DNA from: Deinococcus radiodurans R1 = ATCC 13939 = DSM 20539
Lineage (GTDB): Bacteria; Deinococcota; Deinococci; Deinococcales; Deinococcaceae
DNA length: 32,000 nucleotides
Reading direction: 5' to 3'
Assembly: GCF_000008565.1 (NCBI RefSeq)
Contig: NC_001263.1
Span: 40,906 to 72,905, forward strand
In this document: one piece after another, positions 8,149 through 25,698 of the stretch
Numbering within the stretch: position 1 is the first letter of the stretch
Layout: each line of letters opens with the position of its first letter
Made by a program: the position numbers and the translations under genes
Notes under the pieces: model-generated
What the model was told of the DNA's origin: nothing
Databases searched by the model: none
The model's input: the letters and a program-made list of their open reading frames with translations, nothing else

Positions 8149-8643
8149 TTACCCCAGCGGCGGCAGGTTGCGGCGTTCGTAGAAGGCGGGCGGGGTCACG
8201 CCGAGTTCGCGCAGGTACACGTAGCCCTGGCCCCGGTGGTGGACCTCGTTGTCAATCAAATACATCACGCTCATCAGCGGCGACATCTTCCCGAAGGGGG
8301 TGGTGGCCGGGGTCGCCCACATCTCAGTGCTTACCTGCGGCACTTCGGCGCCCAGCTCGGCAGTCAACTTGTCCCACCACGCGAGCAGCTCGGCGCGGCC
8401 CGGCAGCTCCTTTTTCTGGTCGTTCTCGTCCCAGGTCGGCTGACCCCGCCGGAACCAGTCGAGCTGGTACTCCACCATGCCCGCCAGTTCGCAGGCCATC
8501 GCCTGAAAGGGGCGCATGTCGGGGGCGTGGTGGGCGGCAAAGCCCTCCTCCGGGAAAGCCTCGATGACCCGGCGGGTCAGGTCGCGGTGGCCCTGCCAGT
8601 GGGCGAGCAGTTCGGCGGGAGACAGCAGCAGTTTGTCGCTCAT
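8149..8643 (-). CDS. DinB-family protein, first gene of the four-gene operon (possibly the radiation-induced ddrR)
   Basis: 164 aa with LAHWQGHRD...LIDNEVHHRGQ, typical of the DinB superfamily. GGAGG lies 7 nt upstream of the ATG. Counting genes between the racemase and ddrB places it at the locus I recall as ddrR. That assignment is from memory and unverified. Confidence 0.75.
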   Translation of the reverse strand: MSDKLLLSPAELLAHWQGHRDLTRRVIEAFPEEGFAAHHAPDMRPFQAMACELAGMVEYQLDWFRRGQPTWDENDQKKELPGRAELLAWWDKLTAELGAEVPQVSTEMWATPATTPFGKMSPLMSVMYLIDNEVHHRGQGYVYLRELGVTPPAFYERRNLPPLG

Positions 8644-8656
8644 TTCCTTTTCCTCC

Positions 8657-8673
8657 TGATGGACTCAGCGTAA
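8657..8673 (-). promoter_or_regulatory. Weak RDRM-like 17-mer upstream of the DinB operon
   Basis: The minus strand reads TTACGCTGAGTCCATCA. The left half (TTACGC) fits the RDRM half-site. The right half (CCATCA) fits ACRTAA at 4 of 6 positions. It matches the ddrB site at 9 of 17 positions. Confidence 0.25.
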
Positions 8674-8751: not shown

Positions 8752-9087
8752 ATGTCCGACCTGAAACTGGTGCTGCATGTCTCCGAAGCCGACCGCTGGC
8801 ACGCCGTGCTGAGCAACCTCGTCAACCTGACCGCGTTGGAGGACCGGCCCGAGGTGCGCGTGGTGGTCAACGGCTCGGCGGTGTACGTGCTGCAAGGCGA
8901 ACACGACCAGCTCGCGCAGATGGCGAAAGCGGCAGCGGCGGGCGTGACCTTTCAGATTTGCAATAACTCGCTCAGGGCGCACGACATCCCGGCGGCCAAC
9001 CTGCCGAACTGGGCGCAGACGGTCCCGGCGGGCGTGCTGGCGCTGGCGGAGGCGCAGCGGGGCGGCTTTGCGTACATCAAGCCGTGA
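8752..9087 (+). CDS. DsrE/DsrF-like family protein (COG1416-like)
   Basis: 111 aa. The pattern LKLVLHVSEAD...VVVNGSAV...FQICNNSL...VPAGVLALAE...GFAYIKP is typical of the small DsrE-like fold. Confidence 0.6.
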   Translation: MSDLKLVLHVSEADRWHAVLSNLVNLTALEDRPEVRVVVNGSAVYVLQGEHDQLAQMAKAAAAGVTFQICNNSLRAHDIPAANLPNWAQTVPAGVLALAEAQRGGFAYIKP

Positions 9088-10034
9088 CCTACGACCCCTC
9101 GCTGCGGGTGCTGACCGTGCTGGAGCTGCTTCAGGCGCGCGAGGAAGTCACGGGCGCCGAGCTCGCGCGGCGGCTGGAGGTCAGCCCGCGCACCGTGCAG
9201 CGCTACGTGGCCCGCTTGCAGGACCTGGGGATTCCGGTGGAGGGCCGCCGGGGAGTGGGCGGCGCGTACCGCCTGAAACCCGGCTTTCGCCTGCCGCCGC
9301 TGATGTTTACCGGCGAGGAGGCACTTGCGCTCGCGCTGGGGCTGCGTGCGCTGCAACACCTCGGCCTGAGCGACCTGCTGCCCGCCGCCGAGGTGGCCGG
9401 CGCCAAGCTCTCGCGCACGCTGCCGCCGGAACTGCGCGACACAGTGGCGGCGCTGGAGCAGGTCGCGCAGCTCAGCGTCTCGCCCTGGGTGACGAGCACC
9501 GACGCCCGGCTGCTGACCACGCTGTTTCAGGCAGCGCGTGAGGGGCAGCGGGCCGAGCTGACCTACCGCTCCGGCGCGGCGCAGCACACCGAGCGCGAGG
9601 TGGAGGTCTACCGCGTGGTGCACGTGGACGGACGCTGGTACGCGGTGGGCCACTGCCGACTGCGCGGGGCGCTGCGCTGTTTCCGGCTCGACCGCATCGA
9701 AACGTGTCGGCTGCGCGAAGAAACGTTCACGCCGCCCGCCGACTTCGACGCGCTCGCCTTTTTGCAGCAGGAACTGCCCGCCGCCCATCCTTACGAAATC
9801 AGCGTGTGGCTCGCGGCGCCGCCTGAGCACCTGCGCGGCGCGGTGTCCGTCTGGCACACCGACCTTCGTGCCGAGGAGGACGGCACCCGCATGACCTGTC
9901 AGCGTGAGAACCTGCACAGCTTCGCCGCCTTTTTGCTCGGCGTGGGCGTGGACTTCCGGGTGGACTCGCCGCCCGAACTGCGCGAGGTGCTGCGGACCCT
10001 GGCCGGGCGCTGCCAGCAGGCGGGGGAGGGGTGA
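9084..10034 (+). CDS. WYL-domain transcriptional regulator (wHTH-WYL-WCX; YafY/PafBC/DriD-type architecture)
   Basis: 316 aa. N-terminal HTH (LRVLTVLELLQAREEVTGAELARRLEVSPRTVQRYVARLQDLGIPV) and a central WYL core (VYRVVHVDGRWYAVGHCRLRGALRCFRLDRI). Its GTG overlaps the DsrE-like TGA (GTGA). Confidence 0.85.
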   Translation: MTYDPSLRVLTVLELLQAREEVTGAELARRLEVSPRTVQRYVARLQDLGIPVEGRRGVGGAYRLKPGFRLPPLMFTGEEALALALGLRALQHLGLSDLLPAAEVAGAKLSRTLPPELRDTVAALEQVAQLSVSPWVTSTDARLLTTLFQAAREGQRAELTYRSGAAQHTEREVEVYRVVHVDGRWYAVGHCRLRGALRCFRLDRIETCRLREETFTPPADFDALAFLQQELPAAHPYEISVWLAAPPEHLRGAVSVWHTDLRAEEDGTRMTCQRENLHSFAAFLLGVGVDFRVDSPPELREVLRTLAGRCQQAGEG

Positions 10035-18337: not shown

Positions 18338-19528
18338 TTAGTTCGCGCCCACCCCGCGCTCGGCCTCGGGGTTGGCGGCGAGGCGGCCCAGCGCTGCGTC
18401 CACGTCGGGGTAGGACAGAATCTCGAAGCGGCTGTTGCGAATGGCGGGAGTAAAGCCCGCGTCCACCGCGATGCGAATCAGTTCGCGCACGGTCGCCGCG
18501 TGCCGGTCGTGGCCCGCCGCCGCCGAAACCACGTTTTCTTCGAGCATGGTCGAGCCGAGGTCGTTGGCGCCGTAGTACAGCGCGGCCTGCCCGACTTTGA
18601 ACCCCTGCGCGGGCCACGACGCCTGCAAGTTGGGCAGGTTGTCGAGCGCGATGCGGGCGACGGCGAGCTGCTGCAAATACTCGTGCGCGGTGGCGCCGGG
18701 GGCCTTGCCGTGCAGGCGGGTGTGCTCGGTTTGCAGCGTCCACAGCGCGAAGCCGAAAAAGCCGTTGCCGCCGTACTCGCGCTGCGCTTTGTCCTGCTGG
18801 GCGCGAATCTTGAGCAGGTGGCTCACGCGCTGGGCGTAGGTTTCACCGAAGCCGATGACCATCGTTGCAATGGTGTAGAGCCCCTTGCGCTGCGCCGCGT
18901 CGATGATGCGGAACCAGTCGCCCGAGCGGATGCGGGCGGGCGCGGCCTTTTGCCGCACGTCGTCTTCCAGAATCTCGCCGCCCGCGCCGGGCAGCCCGTC
19001 GAGCCCCGCGTCCATCAGGGTGTCGAGCAGGTCGTCGAGGCTCAGCCCGAACGACTTTTCCATGAACAGCACTTCTTCGGGCGAAAACGCGTCGATCTGA
19101 ATGGTCGGGTGATGCGCTTTGACGTGCCGCAGCATCCCGGTGTAGTAGTCGAGCCCGAGTTCGGGGTTCACGCCGCCTTGCAGCAGGATGCGGGTGCCCC
19201 CCACCGCTTCGAGTTCCCGAATCTTGGCCGAAATCTGCTCGTAATCCAGCGTGTAGCTGTCGCTCTGGCGCCGGGTGCGGTAAAAGGCGCAGAAGTTGCA
19301 GCCCACGTTGCAGATATTGGTGTAGTTGATGTTGCGGTCAATCAGGAAGCTGACCACGTCCGGGTCGCGCCGCTGCATCCGCAGGTCGTGGGCGACGGCA
19401 GCCACCGCCGGGAGCGGCAGGTGATACAGGCTCTCGAGTTCGTCGGCGCCGAGGCGCTCGCCCTGCGCTGCCCGGTCCAGCGCCAGTTGACCGAGTTCGG
19501 GGGAAAGGGGCGGAAAGGCAGCCGTCAT
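18338..19528 (-). CDS. Radical SAM enzyme of the futalosine menaquinone pathway (MqnC/MqnE family, MqnC-like)
   Basis: 396 aa. DRNINYTNICNVGCNFCAFYR carries the CxxxCxxC cluster. Also ILLQGGVNP, GLPGAGGEIL, the ATMVIGFGET block, and C-terminal GANDLGSTMLEENV. I cannot separate MqnC from MqnE without a profile search. Confidence 0.75.
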   Translation of the reverse strand: MTAAFPPLSPELGQLALDRAAQGERLGADELESLYHLPLPAVAAVAHDLRMQRRDPDVVSFLIDRNINYTNICNVGCNFCAFYRTRRQSDSYTLDYEQISAKIRELEAVGGTRILLQGGVNPELGLDYYTGMLRHVKAHHPTIQIDAFSPEEVLFMEKSFGLSLDDLLDTLMDAGLDGLPGAGGEILEDDVRQKAAPARIRSGDWFRIIDAAQRKGLYTIATMVIGFGETYAQRVSHLLKIRAQQDKAQREYGGNGFFGFALWTLQTEHTRLHGKAPGATAHEYLQQLAVARIALDNLPNLQASWPAQGFKVGQAALYYGANDLGSTMLEENVVSAAAGHDRHAATVRELIRIAVDAGFTPAIRNSRFEILSYPDVDAALGRLAANPEAERGVGAN

Positions 19529-19534
19529 GCGGCG

Positions 19535-19540
19535 AGGGTA
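19535..19540 (-). promoter_or_regulatory. -10 box (TACCCT on the minus strand) placed for a leaderless transcript
   Basis: TACCCT lies 6 nt upstream of the ATG at 19528. Confidence 0.4.
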
Positions 19541-19650
19541 GCACCGGGGGCCAGCGGCATTTGTGGAGTGTCGGTCAAAGGCGCGGGCCAGTCCGGCGGG
19601 TCCCGGCAGGCAAACCCGTCTCAGTTCCCCTTTGCTCGCGTGGGCCGCCC

Positions 19651-19656
19651 TACACT
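19651..19656 (+). promoter_or_regulatory. -10 box (TACACT) placed for a leaderless transcript
   Basis: TACACT lies 6 nt upstream of the ATG at 19663. Confidence 0.45.
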
Positions 19657-19662
19657 GTCCTG

Positions 19663-22281
19663 ATGCTGCCCGCCCGCTCCCCCTACGCCCGCCTGGAACT
19701 GTTTTTGCGGGACATCCTGGGGGCGGGGGCCACGCTGCTGCACGAGGAAGAAGTGCGCGAGGCGCAGACGGTGAGTGCGGCGAGCCTCGGCTGGTCGCAG
19801 GCCGTGCAGCGCGGCTTCGGCTTTTCCGAAGTCTACGCCCACCAGGCCGACACCTACCGGCTGATGCACGCGGGCAAAAACGTCATCATCACCACGCCGA
19901 CGGCGAGCGGCAAGACGGGCGCCTTTTTCCCCGCAGTGTTCGAGCGGCTGGAGCAAAAGCCCGAGGCCACCGCCCTGTTCGTCTATCCCCTCGTGGCGCT
20001 CGGGCAGGACCAGCGCGACAAACTGCGGGCCTTCCGGGAAAAGGGTGGCTTCGGCTGGGACATCGCCGCCTTTCATGGCTCGGCGCAACCGGGCGACGTA
20101 TTTACCGGCAACGTGCGGATGGTGACCGCCACGCCCGACAAGCTCCACTGGGCGCTCGACAAGCCCGCCGTACGCGACTTTCTGCGGCGGCTGGAATTTA
20201 TCGTGCTCGACGAGGCGCACACCTACCGGGGCGGCTTCGGCTCGGAGGTGGCGGGGATGCTGCGGCGCCTCCTTGACCTCGCGCGCGCACTAGGGGCGAA
20301 CCCGCAGGTCGTGCTGTCCACCGCCACCATCGGCAACCCCGCCGAATTTGCCCGCGAACTCGTGGGGGTGGAGGCCGAGCAGGTCGGCGAGTCGGGCGCG
20401 GCGCGGCACGGCAAGCGCTATTACCTCGCCGACCACCGGGGGCAGCCCCGCCGCTTCTGGGACAGCGTGGTGAGCGCCAGCATTCATCACGACCTCAAGG
20501 TGCTCGCCTTTTTCCGGGGCCGCTCACGGGCGGCGCGGCTGTACTCCACCTACCGCTCGCAGTCGCGCTACGCCCCGCACGTTCACCTCTATATGGCCGG
20601 CACGAGTGACCGCGAGGGGCGCCTCAGCGAGTTTCGCCGAACGAAAAGTGGTGTGATGTTCGCCACCAACGCGCTCGAAGCCGGGGTGGACATCGGCGAC
20701 CTCGAGGTGGTCATCATCGACGGCTACCCCGGCTCGCGCATGGCCTTCCGGCAGATGGCGGGGCGGGCGGGCCGCGTGGCGCCGGGGCTGGTGCTCTACC
20801 TCCCGGCGCTGAACGAACAGGGCGTGCCGCAGCCGGTAGACGCCTTTTATTCCAACCTCGGCAACTTCCGCGAACTGCTCACCGGGCCGCTGGAAAAGGC
20901 GGTGGTGGAGGCGGGCAACCCCTACCTGTCCCCCCGCCATCAAGCGCGGCGCAACGCCGAATTCCGTGCGGCGGGATTGCCCGCGCTGCCGCGGCCGGGG
21001 CCGAGCTACTGGAACCTGCGCGGCGAGGGGAGCGCGACCTTCGCCGTCATTGAGGAAAAAGACTGGCAGGAGCGCGGGCTGCGGGCCTTCGACGCGCCGC
21101 TCGAATCGCCGAGCCAGCACTACGCCCTGACCGAGAAGCACGAGGGTGCGGTGTTCACGCTTGACGGTCAGGGCTACAAGGTGCTGCGCTGGGAGGACAC
21201 AGCGCGCGGGACGGCCATCATCGTGGAGAAGCATCTGGCGGCGGACCTTTTCACGCGGGGGCTGTATTCCACCCAGGTCCGCCCGGTGAAAATGGGCGAG
21301 TGGGTGCGGCGCGGGCCGCTCGCCTACCGGCACGGCGAAGTCGTGGTGCAGCGCATCTATACCGGCTACACGGTGATGCGGCAGGTCTTCGAGCGCGTCT
21401 GCACCGGCTGCGACCGCGACCCGGCCCCCTTAGAGCGGGTGTGCGCGAACTGCGGCGGGCGCATTCAGGACCGGATGCAGGACCAGAAACTCGCTGAGCA
21501 GCTCTACGACGACCCCATCGAGCTGCCGCCCTTTCGCACCTCGGCGCTGGAAGTCGGCATTGACCCGGCCCGCACCGAGCGGCCCACCGCCGTGGCGCAC
21601 ACGCTCAAGCACCTGCTGATGAAACTCATCCCCGAGCGGGTGGCCTGCGACGAGGGCGACCTCGCCGGGGCCTTTCGCGAGGGCCACGACGCTTATTTCT
21701 TCCTTTACGACGACTGGCGCGGCGGGCTGGGCGTCTCGCGCCGCGCCTTTGAGCAGATGGACGACCTGCTGCGGCGGGCGCACGTGCTGGCGACCAAAAC
21801 GTGCTGCACGTCTCCGCACGGCTGCTTTGAGTGCATCGCGGTCAGCCGCTGTTTTTCACCCCTGCTCCCGAGCGGCGAGCGGCGCCCCACCGACAAGCAG
21901 GCGACGGCGCTGTTCTTGCAGGAGCTGCTCGGCCTGCAACCCGCCCCCGCCGAGGCCGAGGTCATCCCCGACGTGGCGCCCGCCCTGCCCGGCGACTGGC
22001 CGCAGCAAGCGCGCGAACTGCTGGACCTGCACGGCCTTTCACTTCCCGAGGTCAGCGCCCGCCTCGGCATTCCCAGCCGCGAGTTGCAGCGGGCGGTCAA
22101 CACAACGGCGCCCCTGCGCCTCGCCCACGCCAAATTCGGCGAAGGCATCCTGACCCAGGGCTCGGGCAGCGGCGACGCCCGCGAGGTGCTGGTGTACTTT
22201 CCGGGCCACGGCTACAAGCGCCTGCTCGTCAAATACGCCGGGCTGAGCGTGGTGCAGGGGCAGGCGGCGGGACGACGGTAG
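19663..22281 (+). CDS. DEAH-box superfamily-2 helicase with DUF1998/MZB domain (MrfA/YprA-like), plus a C-terminal HTH-like segment and a UvrD/PcrA-type Tudor-like domain
   Basis: 872 aa from the ATG at 19663. Helicase motifs TPTASGKT (I), DEAH (II), STAT (III), QMAGRAGR (VI). Zinc ribbon CTGC-x12-CANC. DUF1998-type Cys cluster CCTSPHGCFECIAVSRC. The C-terminal LAHAKFGEGILTQGSGSGDAREVLVYFPGHGYKRLLVKYAGLSVV closely resembles the E. coli UvrD C-terminus (RHAKFGEGTIV...LQVAFQGQGIKWLVAAYARLESV, from memory). Confidence 0.8.
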   Translation: MLPARSPYARLELFLRDILGAGATLLHEEEVREAQTVSAASLGWSQAVQRGFGFSEVYAHQADTYRLMHAGKNVIITTPTASGKTGAFFPAVFERLEQKPEATALFVYPLVALGQDQRDKLRAFREKGGFGWDIAAFHGSAQPGDVFTGNVRMVTATPDKLHWALDKPAVRDFLRRLEFIVLDEAHTYRGGFGSEVAGMLRRLLDLARALGANPQVVLSTATIGNPAEFARELVGVEAEQVGESGAARHGKRYYLADHRGQPRRFWDSVVSASIHHDLKVLAFFRGRSRAARLYSTYRSQSRYAPHVHLYMAGTSDREGRLSEFRRTKSGVMFATNALEAGVDIGDLEVVIIDGYPGSRMAFRQMAGRAGRVAPGLVLYLPALNEQGVPQPVDAFYSNLGNFRELLTGPLEKAVVEAGNPYLSPRHQARRNAEFRAAGLPALPRPGPSYWNLRGEGSATFAVIEEKDWQERGLRAFDAPLESPSQHYALTEKHEGAVFTLDGQGYKVLRWEDTARGTAIIVEKHLAADLFTRGLYSTQVRPVKMGEWVRRGPLAYRHGEVVVQRIYTGYTVMRQVFERVCTGCDRDPAPLERVCANCGGRIQDRMQDQKLAEQLYDDPIELPPFRTSALEVGIDPARTERPTAVAHTLKHLLMKLIPERVACDEGDLAGAFREGHDAYFFLYDDWRGGLGVSRRAFEQMDDLLRRAHVLATKTCCTSPHGCFECIAVSRCFSPLLPSGERRPTDKQATALFLQELLGLQPAPAEAEVIPDVAPALPGDWPQQARELLDLHGLSLPEVSARLGIPSRELQRAVNTTAPLRLAHAKFGEGILTQGSGSGDAREVLVYFPGHGYKRLLVKYAGLSVVQGQAAGRR

Positions 22282-23278: not shown

Positions 23279-24208
23279 ATGAAGGTTGGACTCCTGAACT
23301 CCCCCGCCGCGCCGCTCACGCCCTACTGGGCGGCGTACCTCAAGGAACTGGGCGTGCCGACCCAGACCCCGGCGCTGGGTGACGCCGAGGCGCTGGCGCT
23401 GGGGGCGCAGAGCCTGCCCGGCGAGTCGCCGGTGGTGCAACTCGCGCTGGGGCGGATTCTGGCGCTCGACCGGGTGGACGCCGCCCTGCTCCCCGAGTGG
23501 CCGGCGGTGGCGGGCGACGCCTGGGGCGAAGCGCTGAGCGAACTGCTGCCCCGCCGCATCAGCGGGCTGCCCATCCTGCTCCCGGTGCCCGAACGGACCG
23601 GCGAACTCGACGCGCTCGAAGCCCAGGCGGCGGCGCTCGGCCTGCGCCTCTCGCAGAATCCCGGCGGCGTGCGCCTCGCGCTGGAGCGGGTGCGCCTGCT
23701 CGCCCAACCCGCCCGCACCGACCTGCCGGCTCTGTCGCGGGCGTCGCGCACCACCGTCGCCGTCATCGGCCCGCGCCCACTGCTGCAAGAGCCAGTGCTG
23801 GCGGCGGGCCTGCGCCCGGCCCTCGAAGCGCTGGACTTCTACCCGGTGTTCAGCTACGAAGTGCCCCATGCCGACGCCCTGCGCCGCGCCGAGCGCATGG
23901 AGCAGGCACACAAAGTTCCCGCTGGCGAACGCGAACTGTTCGGCGCCGCCTCGCTGCTCGCCGGCAAGGGCGCGGTCACGGGGCTGGTCTTCGTGGCCCC
24001 GGCCCGCGACGGCGCGACCCAGGCGGCGCTCCAGCGCATCGCCGACAAACTGCACAAGCCCGCGCTGCACCTCACCCTCGACACGCCCGGCGCGGACGGG
24101 CCGCAGGCCGCCTGGCCCGAACTCGACGCTTTCGCCGAGCGTCTGGCCTCCGGGGGCCGCGTTCGCCCAGCGAACAGCCCGGCCAGTGATGGGGAGAGCG
24201 GCGCATGA
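23279..24208 (+). CDS. Hypothetical protein, possibly a degenerate DUF2229 / acyl-CoA dehydratase activase-related domain
   Basis: 309 aa with good GC3. The N-terminal MKVGLLNSP...[11 protein letters not shown] and the second-half [10 protein letters not shown]...FVAPARDG...LHLTLD follow the spacing I remember for DUF2229. The assignment is weak and needs a profile search. Confidence 0.4.
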
Positions 24209-24579
24209 ATTTCTGGCGCTGGCTGACCACGCCGGACCCCCATCCCGGCTTCACCCGCCCCAAGCTGCTCAAGCTGGCGGTGCGGCTGTTTTTGTTCGTG
24301 CTGCTGGCGACCGTTCTGAGCAGCCTGCTCAACCTCACGCCGCTGCGGCCTTACCTCAACACCTTCTGGGGCAGCCTGCTTTTCGTGCTGCTGCTCTACA
24401 TCCCGGCGGCGCGGTTTCTCAACATAGATACCTTCATGCCCCGGCGCTTTCAGACGCCTCCCCCCCAGCCCGGCGCCAGAGCGGGGCAACCCGCAACCAA
24501 CACGCTGGACAAGCGGCGCGAGAAAAACCGTTATGCGGGCGTTCGCAAGTCGCCGCCGCGCATGGGCGGGCGCCGCTAA
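24205..24579 (+). CDS. Small membrane protein (2 predicted TM helices, basic C-terminal tail)
   Basis: 124 aa. Start and stop overlap as ATGA at 24205-24208. TM segments [22 protein letters not shown] and [16 protein letters not shown]. Confidence 0.55.
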
Positions 24580-24680
24580 GACCACCTGCCCCGAGCGCCC
24601 GCAACATCTGGGCTAGGGGAAAACCTGAAGGTTCGGCCAGGGTCATAACCCTGTGAGAACAGCTTTGCTCTCGTGCGCGC

Positions 24681-25043
24681 ATGAAATGGCACGGCGCCTC
24701 GCAGCGTAAAGGCACCTTCCGCCGTGTTGAGCCCGACGGCAAGGACGTCAAGCCCGTCACGACCTATACGCACACCTTCGTCCTCATCGAAGATGGCCGC
24801 GCCGACGAGCAAAAGCAGCCCTTCTACACGGCGGAGGCGGGCACCCCGGAGGAAGCCGAAGCCCGCGCCTACGCCGCCTACTGCCGCGCAAGCGATTGCC
24901 TGCACCAGATGACCAGCAAAGGCCCCACGCTTATCGAGTGCGTGCACTGCGGCTTGCAGCGCCGGGTGACCATGCCCAGCCTCCCTGCTCCAGCGCCCGC
25001 CCGCAAACCCGAGCGGCGGCTGTTCGGGCTCTTGCGAATCTGA
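24681..25043 (+). CDS. Hypothetical protein with a C-x5-C...C-x2-C motif
   Basis: 120 aa with good GC3. Contains YCRASDC and ECVHCG. No family recognised. Confidence 0.5.
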   Translation: MKWHGASQRKGTFRRVEPDGKDVKPVTTYTHTFVLIEDGRADEQKQPFYTAEAGTPEEAEARAYAAYCRASDCLHQMTSKGPTLIECVHCGLQRRVTMPSLPAPAPARKPERRLFGLLRI

Positions 25044-25103
25044 AGGTCTTGGTGCCCGGCCTCTGCTGGGAGGCGGGACACTGGCACCGGCTTCCCCGAT
25101 GTG

Positions 25104-25120
25104 TTATGTTATTTACGTAA
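25104..25120 (+). promoter_or_regulatory. RDRM (radiation/desiccation response motif; DdrO operator) of ddrB
   Basis: TTATGTTATTTACGTAA is a 17-bp palindromic-type site fitting the RDRM consensus (TTATGT-N5-ACGTAA). It sits immediately upstream of the GGAGGAGG SD and the ATG at 25132. Confidence 0.9.
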
Positions 25121-25131
25121 GGAGGAGGCAG

Positions 25132-25698
25132 ATGTTGCAGATTGAATTTATCACCGACCTGGGTGCGCGGGTCACGGTGAACGTGGAGCATGAAAGCCGG
25201 TTGCTGGACGTACAGCGCCACTATGGCCGCCTGGGCTGGACCAGCGGCGAGATTCCGTCCGGGGGCTACCAGTTTCCCATCGAGAACGAGGCCGACTTCG
25301 ACTGGTCGCTGATCGGCGCCCGCAAGTGGAAGAGCCCCGAGGGCGAAGAACTCGTCATTCACCGGGGCCACGCCTACCGCCGCCGCGAACTCGAAGCCGT
25401 GGACAGCCGCAAGCTCAAGCTGCCTGCCGCCATCAAGTACAGCCGCGGCGCCAAGGTCAGCGACCCGCAGCACGTGCGCGAAAAGGCCGATGGCGACATC
25501 GAATACGTCAGCCTCGCCATCTTCCGCGGTGGCAAGCGGCAGGAGCGCTACGCGGTGCCCGGCGGCGCGGCGGGGAACGGTCAGGGTCGCCCGGCGCCCC
25601 AGGGACAGCCCGCCCAGGCCCGTCCCCAGGCCACTGCCGCTCGCCCCGCCGCTCGGCCCCCGGTGCAGCCCGGTCAGGAAGAAGAAACGCCGTTCTGA
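25132..25698 (+). CDS. ddrB: DdrB, the Deinococcus-specific single-stranded DNA-binding / annealing protein
   Basis: MLQIEFITDLGARVTVNVEHESRLLDVQRHYGRLGWTSGEIPSGGYQFPIENEADFDW... matches my memory of D. radiodurans DdrB. It has a low-complexity Pro/Gln/Ala tail ending in an acidic tip (EEETPF). The 25099 start in the track is rejected because SD spacing fits 25132. Confidence 0.93.
   Translation: MLQIEFITDLGARVTVNVEHESRLLDVQRHYGRLGWTSGEIPSGGYQFPIENEADFDWSLIGARKWKSPEGEELVIHRGHAYRRRELEAVDSRKLKLPAAIKYSRGAKVSDPQHVREKADGDIEYVSLAIFRGGKRQERYAVPGGAAGNGQGRPAPQGQPAQARPQATAARPAARPPVQPGQEEETPF

Follow-up and report, generated by a model that had tools for sequence, protein, structure and literature searches.

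In a 32,000-nucleotide stretch of the Deinococcus radiodurans R1 genome (NC_001263.1, positions 40,906-72,905, forward strand; hereafter the window, whose positions are used as coordinates throughout), we describe a gene for a helicase that joins a motor of the MrfA/YprA/SftH family to a partner-docking domain of the kind found in UvrD and PcrA. Sequence and structure comparisons indicate that the gene represents a Deinococcales-specific branch of this family, which has gained three additions. The tip of the connector sheet bears a Cys4 zinc ribbon, and after the body comes a flexible linker that leads to a tethered tail of two parts, a helix-turn-helix (HTH) and a Tudor domain. The best explanation as a whole, in which we place middling confidence, is that of a Deinococcales MrfA-type helicase with a UvrD-like tethered hook that is directed to UvrB.

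The body of the protein has the full layout of the family, NTR-RecA1-RecA2-WH-OB-CON-MZB (Table 1; domain limits of MrfA were taken from PMC7797055). The motifs of superfamily 2 (SF2) can be read directly from the sequence, with the Walker A motif TPTASGKT at residues 78-85, DEAH at 183-186, SAT at 219-222 and QMAGRAGR at 364-371. Pfam models for DEAD (82.8 bits) and Helicase_C (47.6 bits) match the whole protein, as does MZB/DUF1998 (PF09369) at residues 648-725, with 58.2 bits against a cut-off of 24.2. A phmmer comparison of the motor and MZB domain with B. subtilis MrfA (PDB 6znp) gave an E-value of 2.7e-50, and the alignment to 6znp covers residues 24-379. The full-length AlphaFold2 model has a mean predicted local distance difference test score (pLDDT) of 87.8 and a predicted template modelling score of 0.86, and Foldseek aligned it with 6znp over 819 columns (E 1.5e-49, template modelling (TM) score 0.66). 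An earlier note on this DNA, made from the letters alone, had called the protein an MrfA/YprA-like DEAH-DUF1998 helicase, and these matches bear that assignment out. The WH domain model of MrfA, PF22982, was undetected in the Deinococcus clade, whose WH region is divergent.

The cysteine cluster of the MZB domain, CCTSPHGCFECIAVSRC, spans residues 714-730 and lies at nucleotides 21802-21852, where the earlier note had placed it. It holds C714, C715, C721 and C724 plus C730, and is predicted to form a four-cysteine zinc site. These cysteines are kept in 80-83 of 83 clade members (C714, C715, C721 and C724 in 82-83), and the first of them stands one position away from where the C-x-C of the outgroup would have it. 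Judged by its homologues MrfA and SftH, the body should be a zinc-containing 3'-to-5' translocase/helicase on single-stranded DNA that closes a ring round the loading strand.

Sequence and model agree that the tail ends in a genuine PcrA/UvrD-type five-stranded Tudor barrel. The Pfam model PF21196 (PcrA_UvrD_tudor, cut-off 23.9) scores 28.1 bits in the whole protein (residues 820-859) and 32.3 bits in the tail, and was detected in 23 of 23 orthologue tails. When the tail was compared with PDB sequences by phmmer, it matched the C-terminal domain (CTD) of E. coli UvrD (1.7e-6), D. radiodurans UvrD (1.4e-5) and PcrA (2.7e-3); a profile built from the 23 orthologue tails found residues 699-743 of D. 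radiodurans UvrD at 2.2e-10. The AlphaFold2 model of the tail has a pLDDT of 88, and its best seven Foldseek matches are all UvrD/PcrA Tudor CTDs, with root-mean-square deviations of 1.8-2.6 Å and identities of 26-42%. The TM score is 0.81-0.84 in six of the seven (including 7egs_B, 9dqs, 5dma and 7egt_B) and 0.59 for a longer nuclear magnetic resonance construct, 6yi2. No significant match was obtained against viral structures. The likeness to UvrD and PcrA had been pointed out in the earlier note, which proposed a profile or structure search as a check; the profile and structure searches above both found it.

Mean BLOSUM scores of the Tudor domains in the 23 tails are 98.7 against the CTD of D. 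radiodurans UvrD, 81 against that of E. coli, 77 against Thermus and 65 against PcrA, and the known UvrD/PcrA CTDs score 60-97 among themselves. By this measure, the Tudor domain of the helicase is at least as close to the Deinococcus UvrD CTD as UvrD/PcrA CTDs are to each other. That it comes closest to Deinococcus UvrD's own is consistent with, but no proof of, the domain having been copied from uvrD within the lineage.

Mutagenesis has shown that residues H681, W684, K712 and L714 of PcrA are needed for binding to RNA polymerase (RNAP; PMC5397179). In our alignment PcrA H681, W684, F705, K712 and L714 correspond to H822, F825, F846, K852 and L854 of the helicase, each of which is conserved in 76-80 of 80 tails: H822 in all 80, F825 as Phe in 76 and Trp in four, K852 as Lys in 76 and Arg in three, and L854 in 79. 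Since these are residues that bind the partner, their conservation argues that the binding face is under selection.

Ahead of the Tudor domain, the linker differs in length among orthologues (alignment columns ~1001-1060), and the HTH-like stretch that had been noticed in the C-terminal extension (residues 792-812) falls within three predicted helices, at residues 779-789, 794-801 and 805-814 (pLDDT ~85-95). The Pfam model Sigma70_r4_2 matches 15 of the 23 orthologue tails, with a best E-value of 8.8e-5; in the D. radiodurans protein it scores 13.4 bits against a cut-off of 25.7. Foldseek matched the HTH weakly to region 4 of sigmaE (1or7; probability 0.94, E 0.73). With moderate confidence, we assign it to the sigma-region-4 type.

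Together, sequence and model support a role of the tail as a recruitment module acting through a borrowed UvrD docking domain, and the question is which partner it would recruit to. In E. coli and B. subtilis, the Tudor domain docks on a TGE beta-hairpin in SI1, a lineage-specific insert of RpoB (PMC8318588; PDB 7egs). The hairpin has the consensus [VIL]-D-x-x-T-G-E-[VIL]-[VILT], and the PcrA CTD recognises it in UvrB as well as in RpoB SI1; the two compete (PMC8318588). The earlier note had proposed recruitment to stalled RNAP; a Tudor domain serving as recruitment module is plausible, but RNAP is the weaker candidate when set beside UvrB, as no such hairpin was seen in the parts of RpoB examined from Thermus and from relatives of D. 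radiodurans.

Docking onto RNAP as in PcrA and UvrD would bring the helicase to stalled or backtracked elongation complexes, for transcription-coupled repair or removal of R-loops. The Tudor domain is of the same family as the RNAP-binding domain of E. coli and B. subtilis, the four PcrA residues needed for that binding are conserved, and the best fold match (7egs_B) is a UvrD CTD from a complex with the lobe of E. coli RNAP. The adjoining HTH, moreover, resembles sigma region 4, a module that touches both RNAP and promoter DNA. However, the site used in E. coli and B. subtilis lies in the SI1 insert of the beta lobe, and Thermus RpoB is shorter in this region by ~128 residues compared to E. 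coli and ~78 compared to B. subtilis; its residues 1-474 contain no TGE motif. In RpoB from Deinococcaceae, Deinococcales, Truepera and Meiothermus genomes, the lobe is only 2-5 residues longer than in Thermus and contains no SI1 insert; the tripeptide TG[EQ] does not occur in the first ~700-750 residues. RpoB of some species without a recognisable motif is also reported in PMC8318588 itself. The genome scan yielded Thermales, Trueperaceae and Deinococcaceae/Deinococcales metagenome-assembled genomes (MAGs) and no named Deinococcus species, D. radiodurans included, so the conclusion on RpoB rests on relatives. Docking to stalled RNAP is thus possible, yet not favoured, and we rate it as unlikely.

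Thermales UvrB offers what RpoB appears to lack. A complex of the Thermus UvrD CTD with the N-terminal domain of UvrB has been solved (7egt), Thermus UvrB carries the hairpin motif VHPVTGERL, and HPVTGER is kept in four of five other Thermales UvrB proteins examined (Meiothermus, Calidithermus and relatives). In a search with full-length Thermus UvrB the best 120 matches all came from Thermales, and the hairpin was seen for this sister order only. Because Thermales UvrB has the hairpin and Thermus UvrB the solved complex, and the Deinococcota RpoB proteins examined are without SI1 insert and, in their first ~700-750 residues, without TG[EQ], UvrB is the more likely docking partner.

Alternatively, the tail may act mainly by regulation or by binding DNA and not as a recruitment hook. 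It might keep the helicase auto-inhibited until release by a partner or substrate, or make non-specific contacts, with the HTH on duplex DNA and the aromatic face of the Tudor domain on single-stranded DNA. The CTD of E. coli UvrD binds single- and double-stranded DNA weakly (bioRxiv 10.1101/2020.07.06.189035), and for mycobacterial UvrD1 the Tudor domain is proposed to keep unwinding auto-inhibited as long as Ku is not bound (PMC11975281); an HTH is a DNA-binding type of fold, and a flexible linker tethers the tail. The HTH (residues 779-814) is, however, not basic, with ~4 Arg to 5 Asp/Glu by our count, so a role in DNA binding is not obvious. The invariant residues make up a protein-binding face, and neither the helicase nor any other part of the window contains a TGE-type motif that the Tudor domain could bind in cis. 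We consider this explanation improbable, somewhat more so than docking onto RNAP.

The preferred, UvrB-directed reading can be put as a sequence of steps. The tail would act as in UvrD and PcrA, as a tethered hook that grips an exposed TGE-type beta-hairpin of a partner and so gathers the motor at the places on DNA that this partner occupies. The protein likeliest to offer such a hairpin in the Deinococcus-Thermus phylum would be UvrB. Lesions marked by UvrB, or pre- or post-incision complexes, would then attract the helicase, which would unwind or strip the damaged strand there, beside UvrD or in competition with it. The step of targeting lesions would thereby be supplied without an operon-encoded MrfB exonuclease. 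Taken one step further, this would amount to a lineage-specific branch of excision repair, in which UvrB, or another protein with a TGE hairpin, loads an MrfA-type helicase with a UvrD-copied Tudor domain onto lesions, competing or alternating with UvrD; this extension we put forward tentatively, as less probable than the reading it builds on.

Several points weigh against a UvrB-directed hook. The hairpin is known for UvrB of the sister order Thermales, and Deinococcus UvrB is absent among the matches listed; the RpoB set likewise consists of MAGs and relatives rather than D. radiodurans, and covers the first ~700-750 residues of the beta subunit. Docking of the tail to UvrB is itself read from comparisons of sequence and fold. 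MrfAB of B. subtilis act independently of UvrABC (bioRxiv 10.1101/426304), and a link to UvrB would therefore depart from the only member of the family that has been studied genetically. In E. coli and M. smegmatis the Tudor domain of UvrD is dispensable for excision repair (PMC11975281), so docking may matter little for repair. The domain is also a promiscuous hub, with UvrB, RNAP, MutL and Ku among its partners as well as weak DNA binding (PMC11975281; bioRxiv 10.1101/2020.07.06.189035).

Of the other additions, the zinc ribbon sits at the end of the long CON beta-hairpin in the AlphaFold2 model when this is read against the domain map of MrfA (pLDDT ~70). An extra ribbon had been pointed out in the earlier note with a spacing of 12 residues between the cysteine pairs; it is present and specific to the clade, with a spacing of ten. 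The four cysteines are found in 82-83 of 83 clade members, and 12 outgroup YprA-like helicases, like B. subtilis MrfA, have only a gap at this stretch. Since three clade members (P0084 and P0085, from a Deinococcales MAG, and P0082) keep the ribbon without the tail, the ribbon is probably the older addition. Both the HTH and the ribbon may provide a second contact with a partner or with DNA. The gene for the tail-less, ribbon-bearing P0084 (metagenome locus L004) is flanked by genes for a PemK toxin, HicA/HicB toxin-antitoxin proteins and an AAA_15 ATPase, a setting more island-like than in Deinococcus.

The orthologue clade comprises ~85 protein clusters of ~870 residues (47-92% identity), all from Deinococcus, Deinobacterium or Deinococcales. 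Its members come from dozens of named Deinococcus species (65-92% identity), Deinobacterium and Deinococcales metagenome bins. The next relatives outside the clade are 32% identical and have neither ribbon nor tail. The combination of body, ribbon and HTH-Tudor tail thus appears confined to the Deinococcales.

Outside the helicase family, the HTH-Tudor pair was found once only, in a metagenome singleton (P0125) of 206 residues on a 1219-bp JGI contig, where a T5orf172/GIY-YIG-like domain (residues 8-88) is joined to an HTH-Tudor unit 60% identical to the helicase tail. This could be either a mobile cassette that also serves a small nuclease-like protein or a chimeric contig assembly. The PF21196 Tudor domain alone occurs in further non-helicase proteins (P0183, P0157 and P0130): as two copies after AbiJ_NTD5 and Abi_C, as one copy after PIN_12, and as three tandem copies in a protein of 387 residues. 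From these architectures it looks like a general, mobile docking cassette that is also used in proteins of abortive-infection type.

Such fusions to AbiJ-like and PIN domains bear on a further explanation, namely that this YprA-family helicase serves in anti-phage defence rather than repair, with a tail that senses a host or phage factor or docks onto it. DISARM, Dpd, Druantia and newer systems are built round helicases of the YprA family, and additional zinc-binding inserts in the OB/CON canopy are described as characteristic of the defence clades and not of the YprA-only or MrfAB branches (PMC12458937). The position of the tail-less relative P0084 among toxin-antitoxin genes points the same way. 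On the other hand, PADLOC models applied to the helicase and its four neighbours matched the generic helicase core alone (at most 95 bits) and none of the neighbours. Dozens of named Deinococcus species carry the gene, with 65-92% identity, as expected of a core gene. Its neighbours are of housekeeping type (MqnC-like, DegV and APH in D. radiodurans; DnaB, NrdR and others at related loci) and vary between species, and no methylase, nuclease or other defence partner lies next to it in the window or the related loci. A defence role therefore seems very improbable, far more so than the explanations weighed above.

Table 1. Features of the helicase gene and its product (nt, nucleotides; aa, amino acids; CON, connector)
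Feature	Position in window (nt)	Strand	Basis
Helicase gene	19663..22281	+	ATG to stop, 872 aa (open reading frame and translation)
TACACT, -10-like hexamer	19651..19656	+	6 nt 5' of ATG; read by eye from the sequence
RecA1 domain, aa 59-226, with Walker A and DEAH	19837..20340	+	Pfam DEAD 3.1e-23; motif positions
RecA2 domain, aa 274-372, with motif VI QMAGRAGR	20482..20778	+	Pfam Helicase_C 2.2e-12
Divergent WH/OB/CON region, aa 399-640, with long beta-hairpin 553-620	20857..21582	+	AlphaFold2 secondary structure
Predicted Cys4 zinc ribbon, C580-x2-C583-x10-C594-x2-C597 (CTGC-x10-CANC), aa 580-597	21400..21453	+	sequence; alignment
MZB/DUF1998 domain, predicted zinc-binding, aa 648-756	21604..21930	+	Pfam MZB; alignment to MrfA 650-731
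Predicted disordered linker, aa 757-778	21931..21996	+	pLDDT <50 at aa 762-776 (AlphaFold2)
Three-helix HTH, sigma-70 region-4-like, highly conserved, aa 779-814	21997..22104	+	AlphaFold2 helices; Sigma70_r4_2 matches; Foldseek
PcrA/UvrD-type Tudor domain, aa 818-864	22114..22254	+	Pfam PF21196; PDB sequence and profile matches; Foldseek

The cluster of identical proteins carries the name 'DEAD/DEAH box helicase [Deinococcus radiodurans]'. We infer that the gene is DR_0065, a tag assigned from gene order, five genes before ddrB (DR_0070); DR_0065 is listed in PMC11229311 as a DEAD/DEAH box helicase. Further upstream, a TTG at 19561 could serve as an alternative start, and all orthologues in the alignment begin at the position of the ATG. 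The GC content at third codon positions (GC3) is 0.88 in the helicase gene, and the GC content of the window is ~69%.

The hexamer TACACT lies so near the start codon that it suggests a leaderless helicase mRNA. The 134-nucleotide intergenic region at 19529-19662 is common to the helicase gene and a divergent radical-SAM gene of MqnC/CofH-like type (18338-19528, minus strand), and contains no inverted repeat of at least 8 nucleotides and no consensus promoter. A scan for sigma-70 consensus promoters and intrinsic terminators around the helicase gene found none above chance. The pattern of the radiation/desiccation response motif (RDRM, the DdrO operator) was searched for in the same intergenic region 5' of the helicase gene and gave no site; only ddrB has one.

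As the earlier note had stated, no MrfB-like exonuclease gene adjoins the helicase gene, either in the window or at four related loci (L001-L004); a genome-wide search for MrfB was not made. In D. peraridilitoris and Deinobacterium chartae, a gene for a protein of ~325 residues lies directly upstream of the helicase gene on the same strand (L002 4898-5869 and L003 196-1176; 47% identity between the two proteins). The protein has hydrophobic N- and C-terminal segments (two transmembrane segments) and no Pfam match. It was rejected as a functional partner: it is unrelated to the 309-residue open reading frame (ORF) of the window described below and to the upstream gene in L001, and is not found beside the D. 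radiodurans gene.

Elsewhere in the window, ddrB is preceded by a perfect 17-bp RDRM, TTATGTTATTTACGTAA, at 25104-25120, followed by AGGAGG at 25121-25126 and an ATG at 25133. The ddrB ORF as mechanically called starts at 25099, upstream of the operator, and thus spans it; judged from this arrangement, translation probably begins at 25133. Three successive plus-strand ORFs of 309, 124 and 120 residues (23279-25043; GC3 0.83-0.88) lie between the APH gene and ddrB and gave no Pfam or PADLOC match, and the first two overlap by 4 nucleotides (24205-24208). Some 10 kb upstream of the helicase gene lie genes for a DinB-family protein (8149-8643, minus strand) and a regulator with a PafC/BrxR-like HTH-WYL-WCX architecture (9084-10034, plus strand). 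An RDRM-like site with two mismatches sits just 5' of the DinB gene (8657-8673), and such matches occur at chance level in the window.

The earlier note knew of no description of this architecture, and we likewise found none of a DUF1998 helicase with a Tudor domain in the searchable literature; a 2025 survey of the YprA family (PMC12458937) makes no mention of Tudor domains or of Deinococcus. Precomputed Pfam annotation nevertheless shows the fusion already, and every part of it is known, which makes the finding a useful lead rather than a new kind of system. According to the MrfA structure paper, recruitment could depend on "a yet to be identified factor" (PMC7797055), and the fusion offers a testable lead on how an MrfA-type helicase is targeted, a matter stated there as unknown. 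In a whole order of radiation-resistant bacteria, such a helicase appears to have been permanently fitted with a docking domain that is well characterised, which would make the UvrD/PcrA Tudor domain a portable recruitment cassette that is not limited to superfamily 1 (SF1) helicases. The finding also adds an uncharacterised helicase, conserved across the genus, to the repair inventory of D. radiodurans. If the UvrB-directed reading is true, it would connect the MrfA family physically with the UvrABC machinery, the first such link known, and give MrfA-type helicases their first identified targeting mechanism; it could also be one source of the tolerance of the genus to bulky and crosslink damage.

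Among known systems, the defence-type YprA helicases (DrmA/DrmB, DruE, DpdJ and related proteins) belong to the same superfamily and have extra zinc-binding OB/CON inserts too, but the Deinococcus protein matches them in the generic core alone, is without a defence neighbourhood, and is conserved genus-wide like a core gene. The Tudor-like domains of Mfd/TRCF and CarD likewise dock a repair or transcription factor on a partner; they are distant fold matches (6x2f and 4kbm), with weak Foldseek E-values of 0.05-0.35, no sequence similarity, and a different site on RpoB (beta1). The best NCBIfam match is TIGR03817 (DECH helicase), the family of M. smegmatis SftH, with 231.5 bits, which is far below the equivalog cut-off of 874.1 and covers only model positions 32-419 of 742. 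SftH was shown biochemically to be a monomeric 3'-5' DNA helicase with DUF1998 and, unlike the Deinococcus protein, has no Tudor tail. With B. subtilis MrfA (YprA; PDB 6znp, 6znq and 6zns) the protein has in common an SF2 DEAH/DExH motor, a ring-forming architecture and the DUF1998/MZB domain, at ~21% identity in the structural alignment. MrfA, of 749 residues and encoded together with the exonuclease MrfB, has neither connector ribbon nor HTH-Tudor tail, whereas the Deinococcus protein, of 872 residues and with no such neighbour, has both. The closest counterpart of its tail is the Tudor domain of UvrD and PcrA (PF21196; 5dma, 6yi2, 7egs, 7egt and 9dqs; D. radiodurans UvrD, 4c2t), which is of the same fold and sequence family, has the same place at the extreme C-terminus after a flexible linker, and shares the partner-binding residues. 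Compared to UvrD and PcrA, however, the domain here is mounted on an SF2 motor of MrfA type rather than an SF1 motor, and is preceded by an HTH that those helicases do not have.

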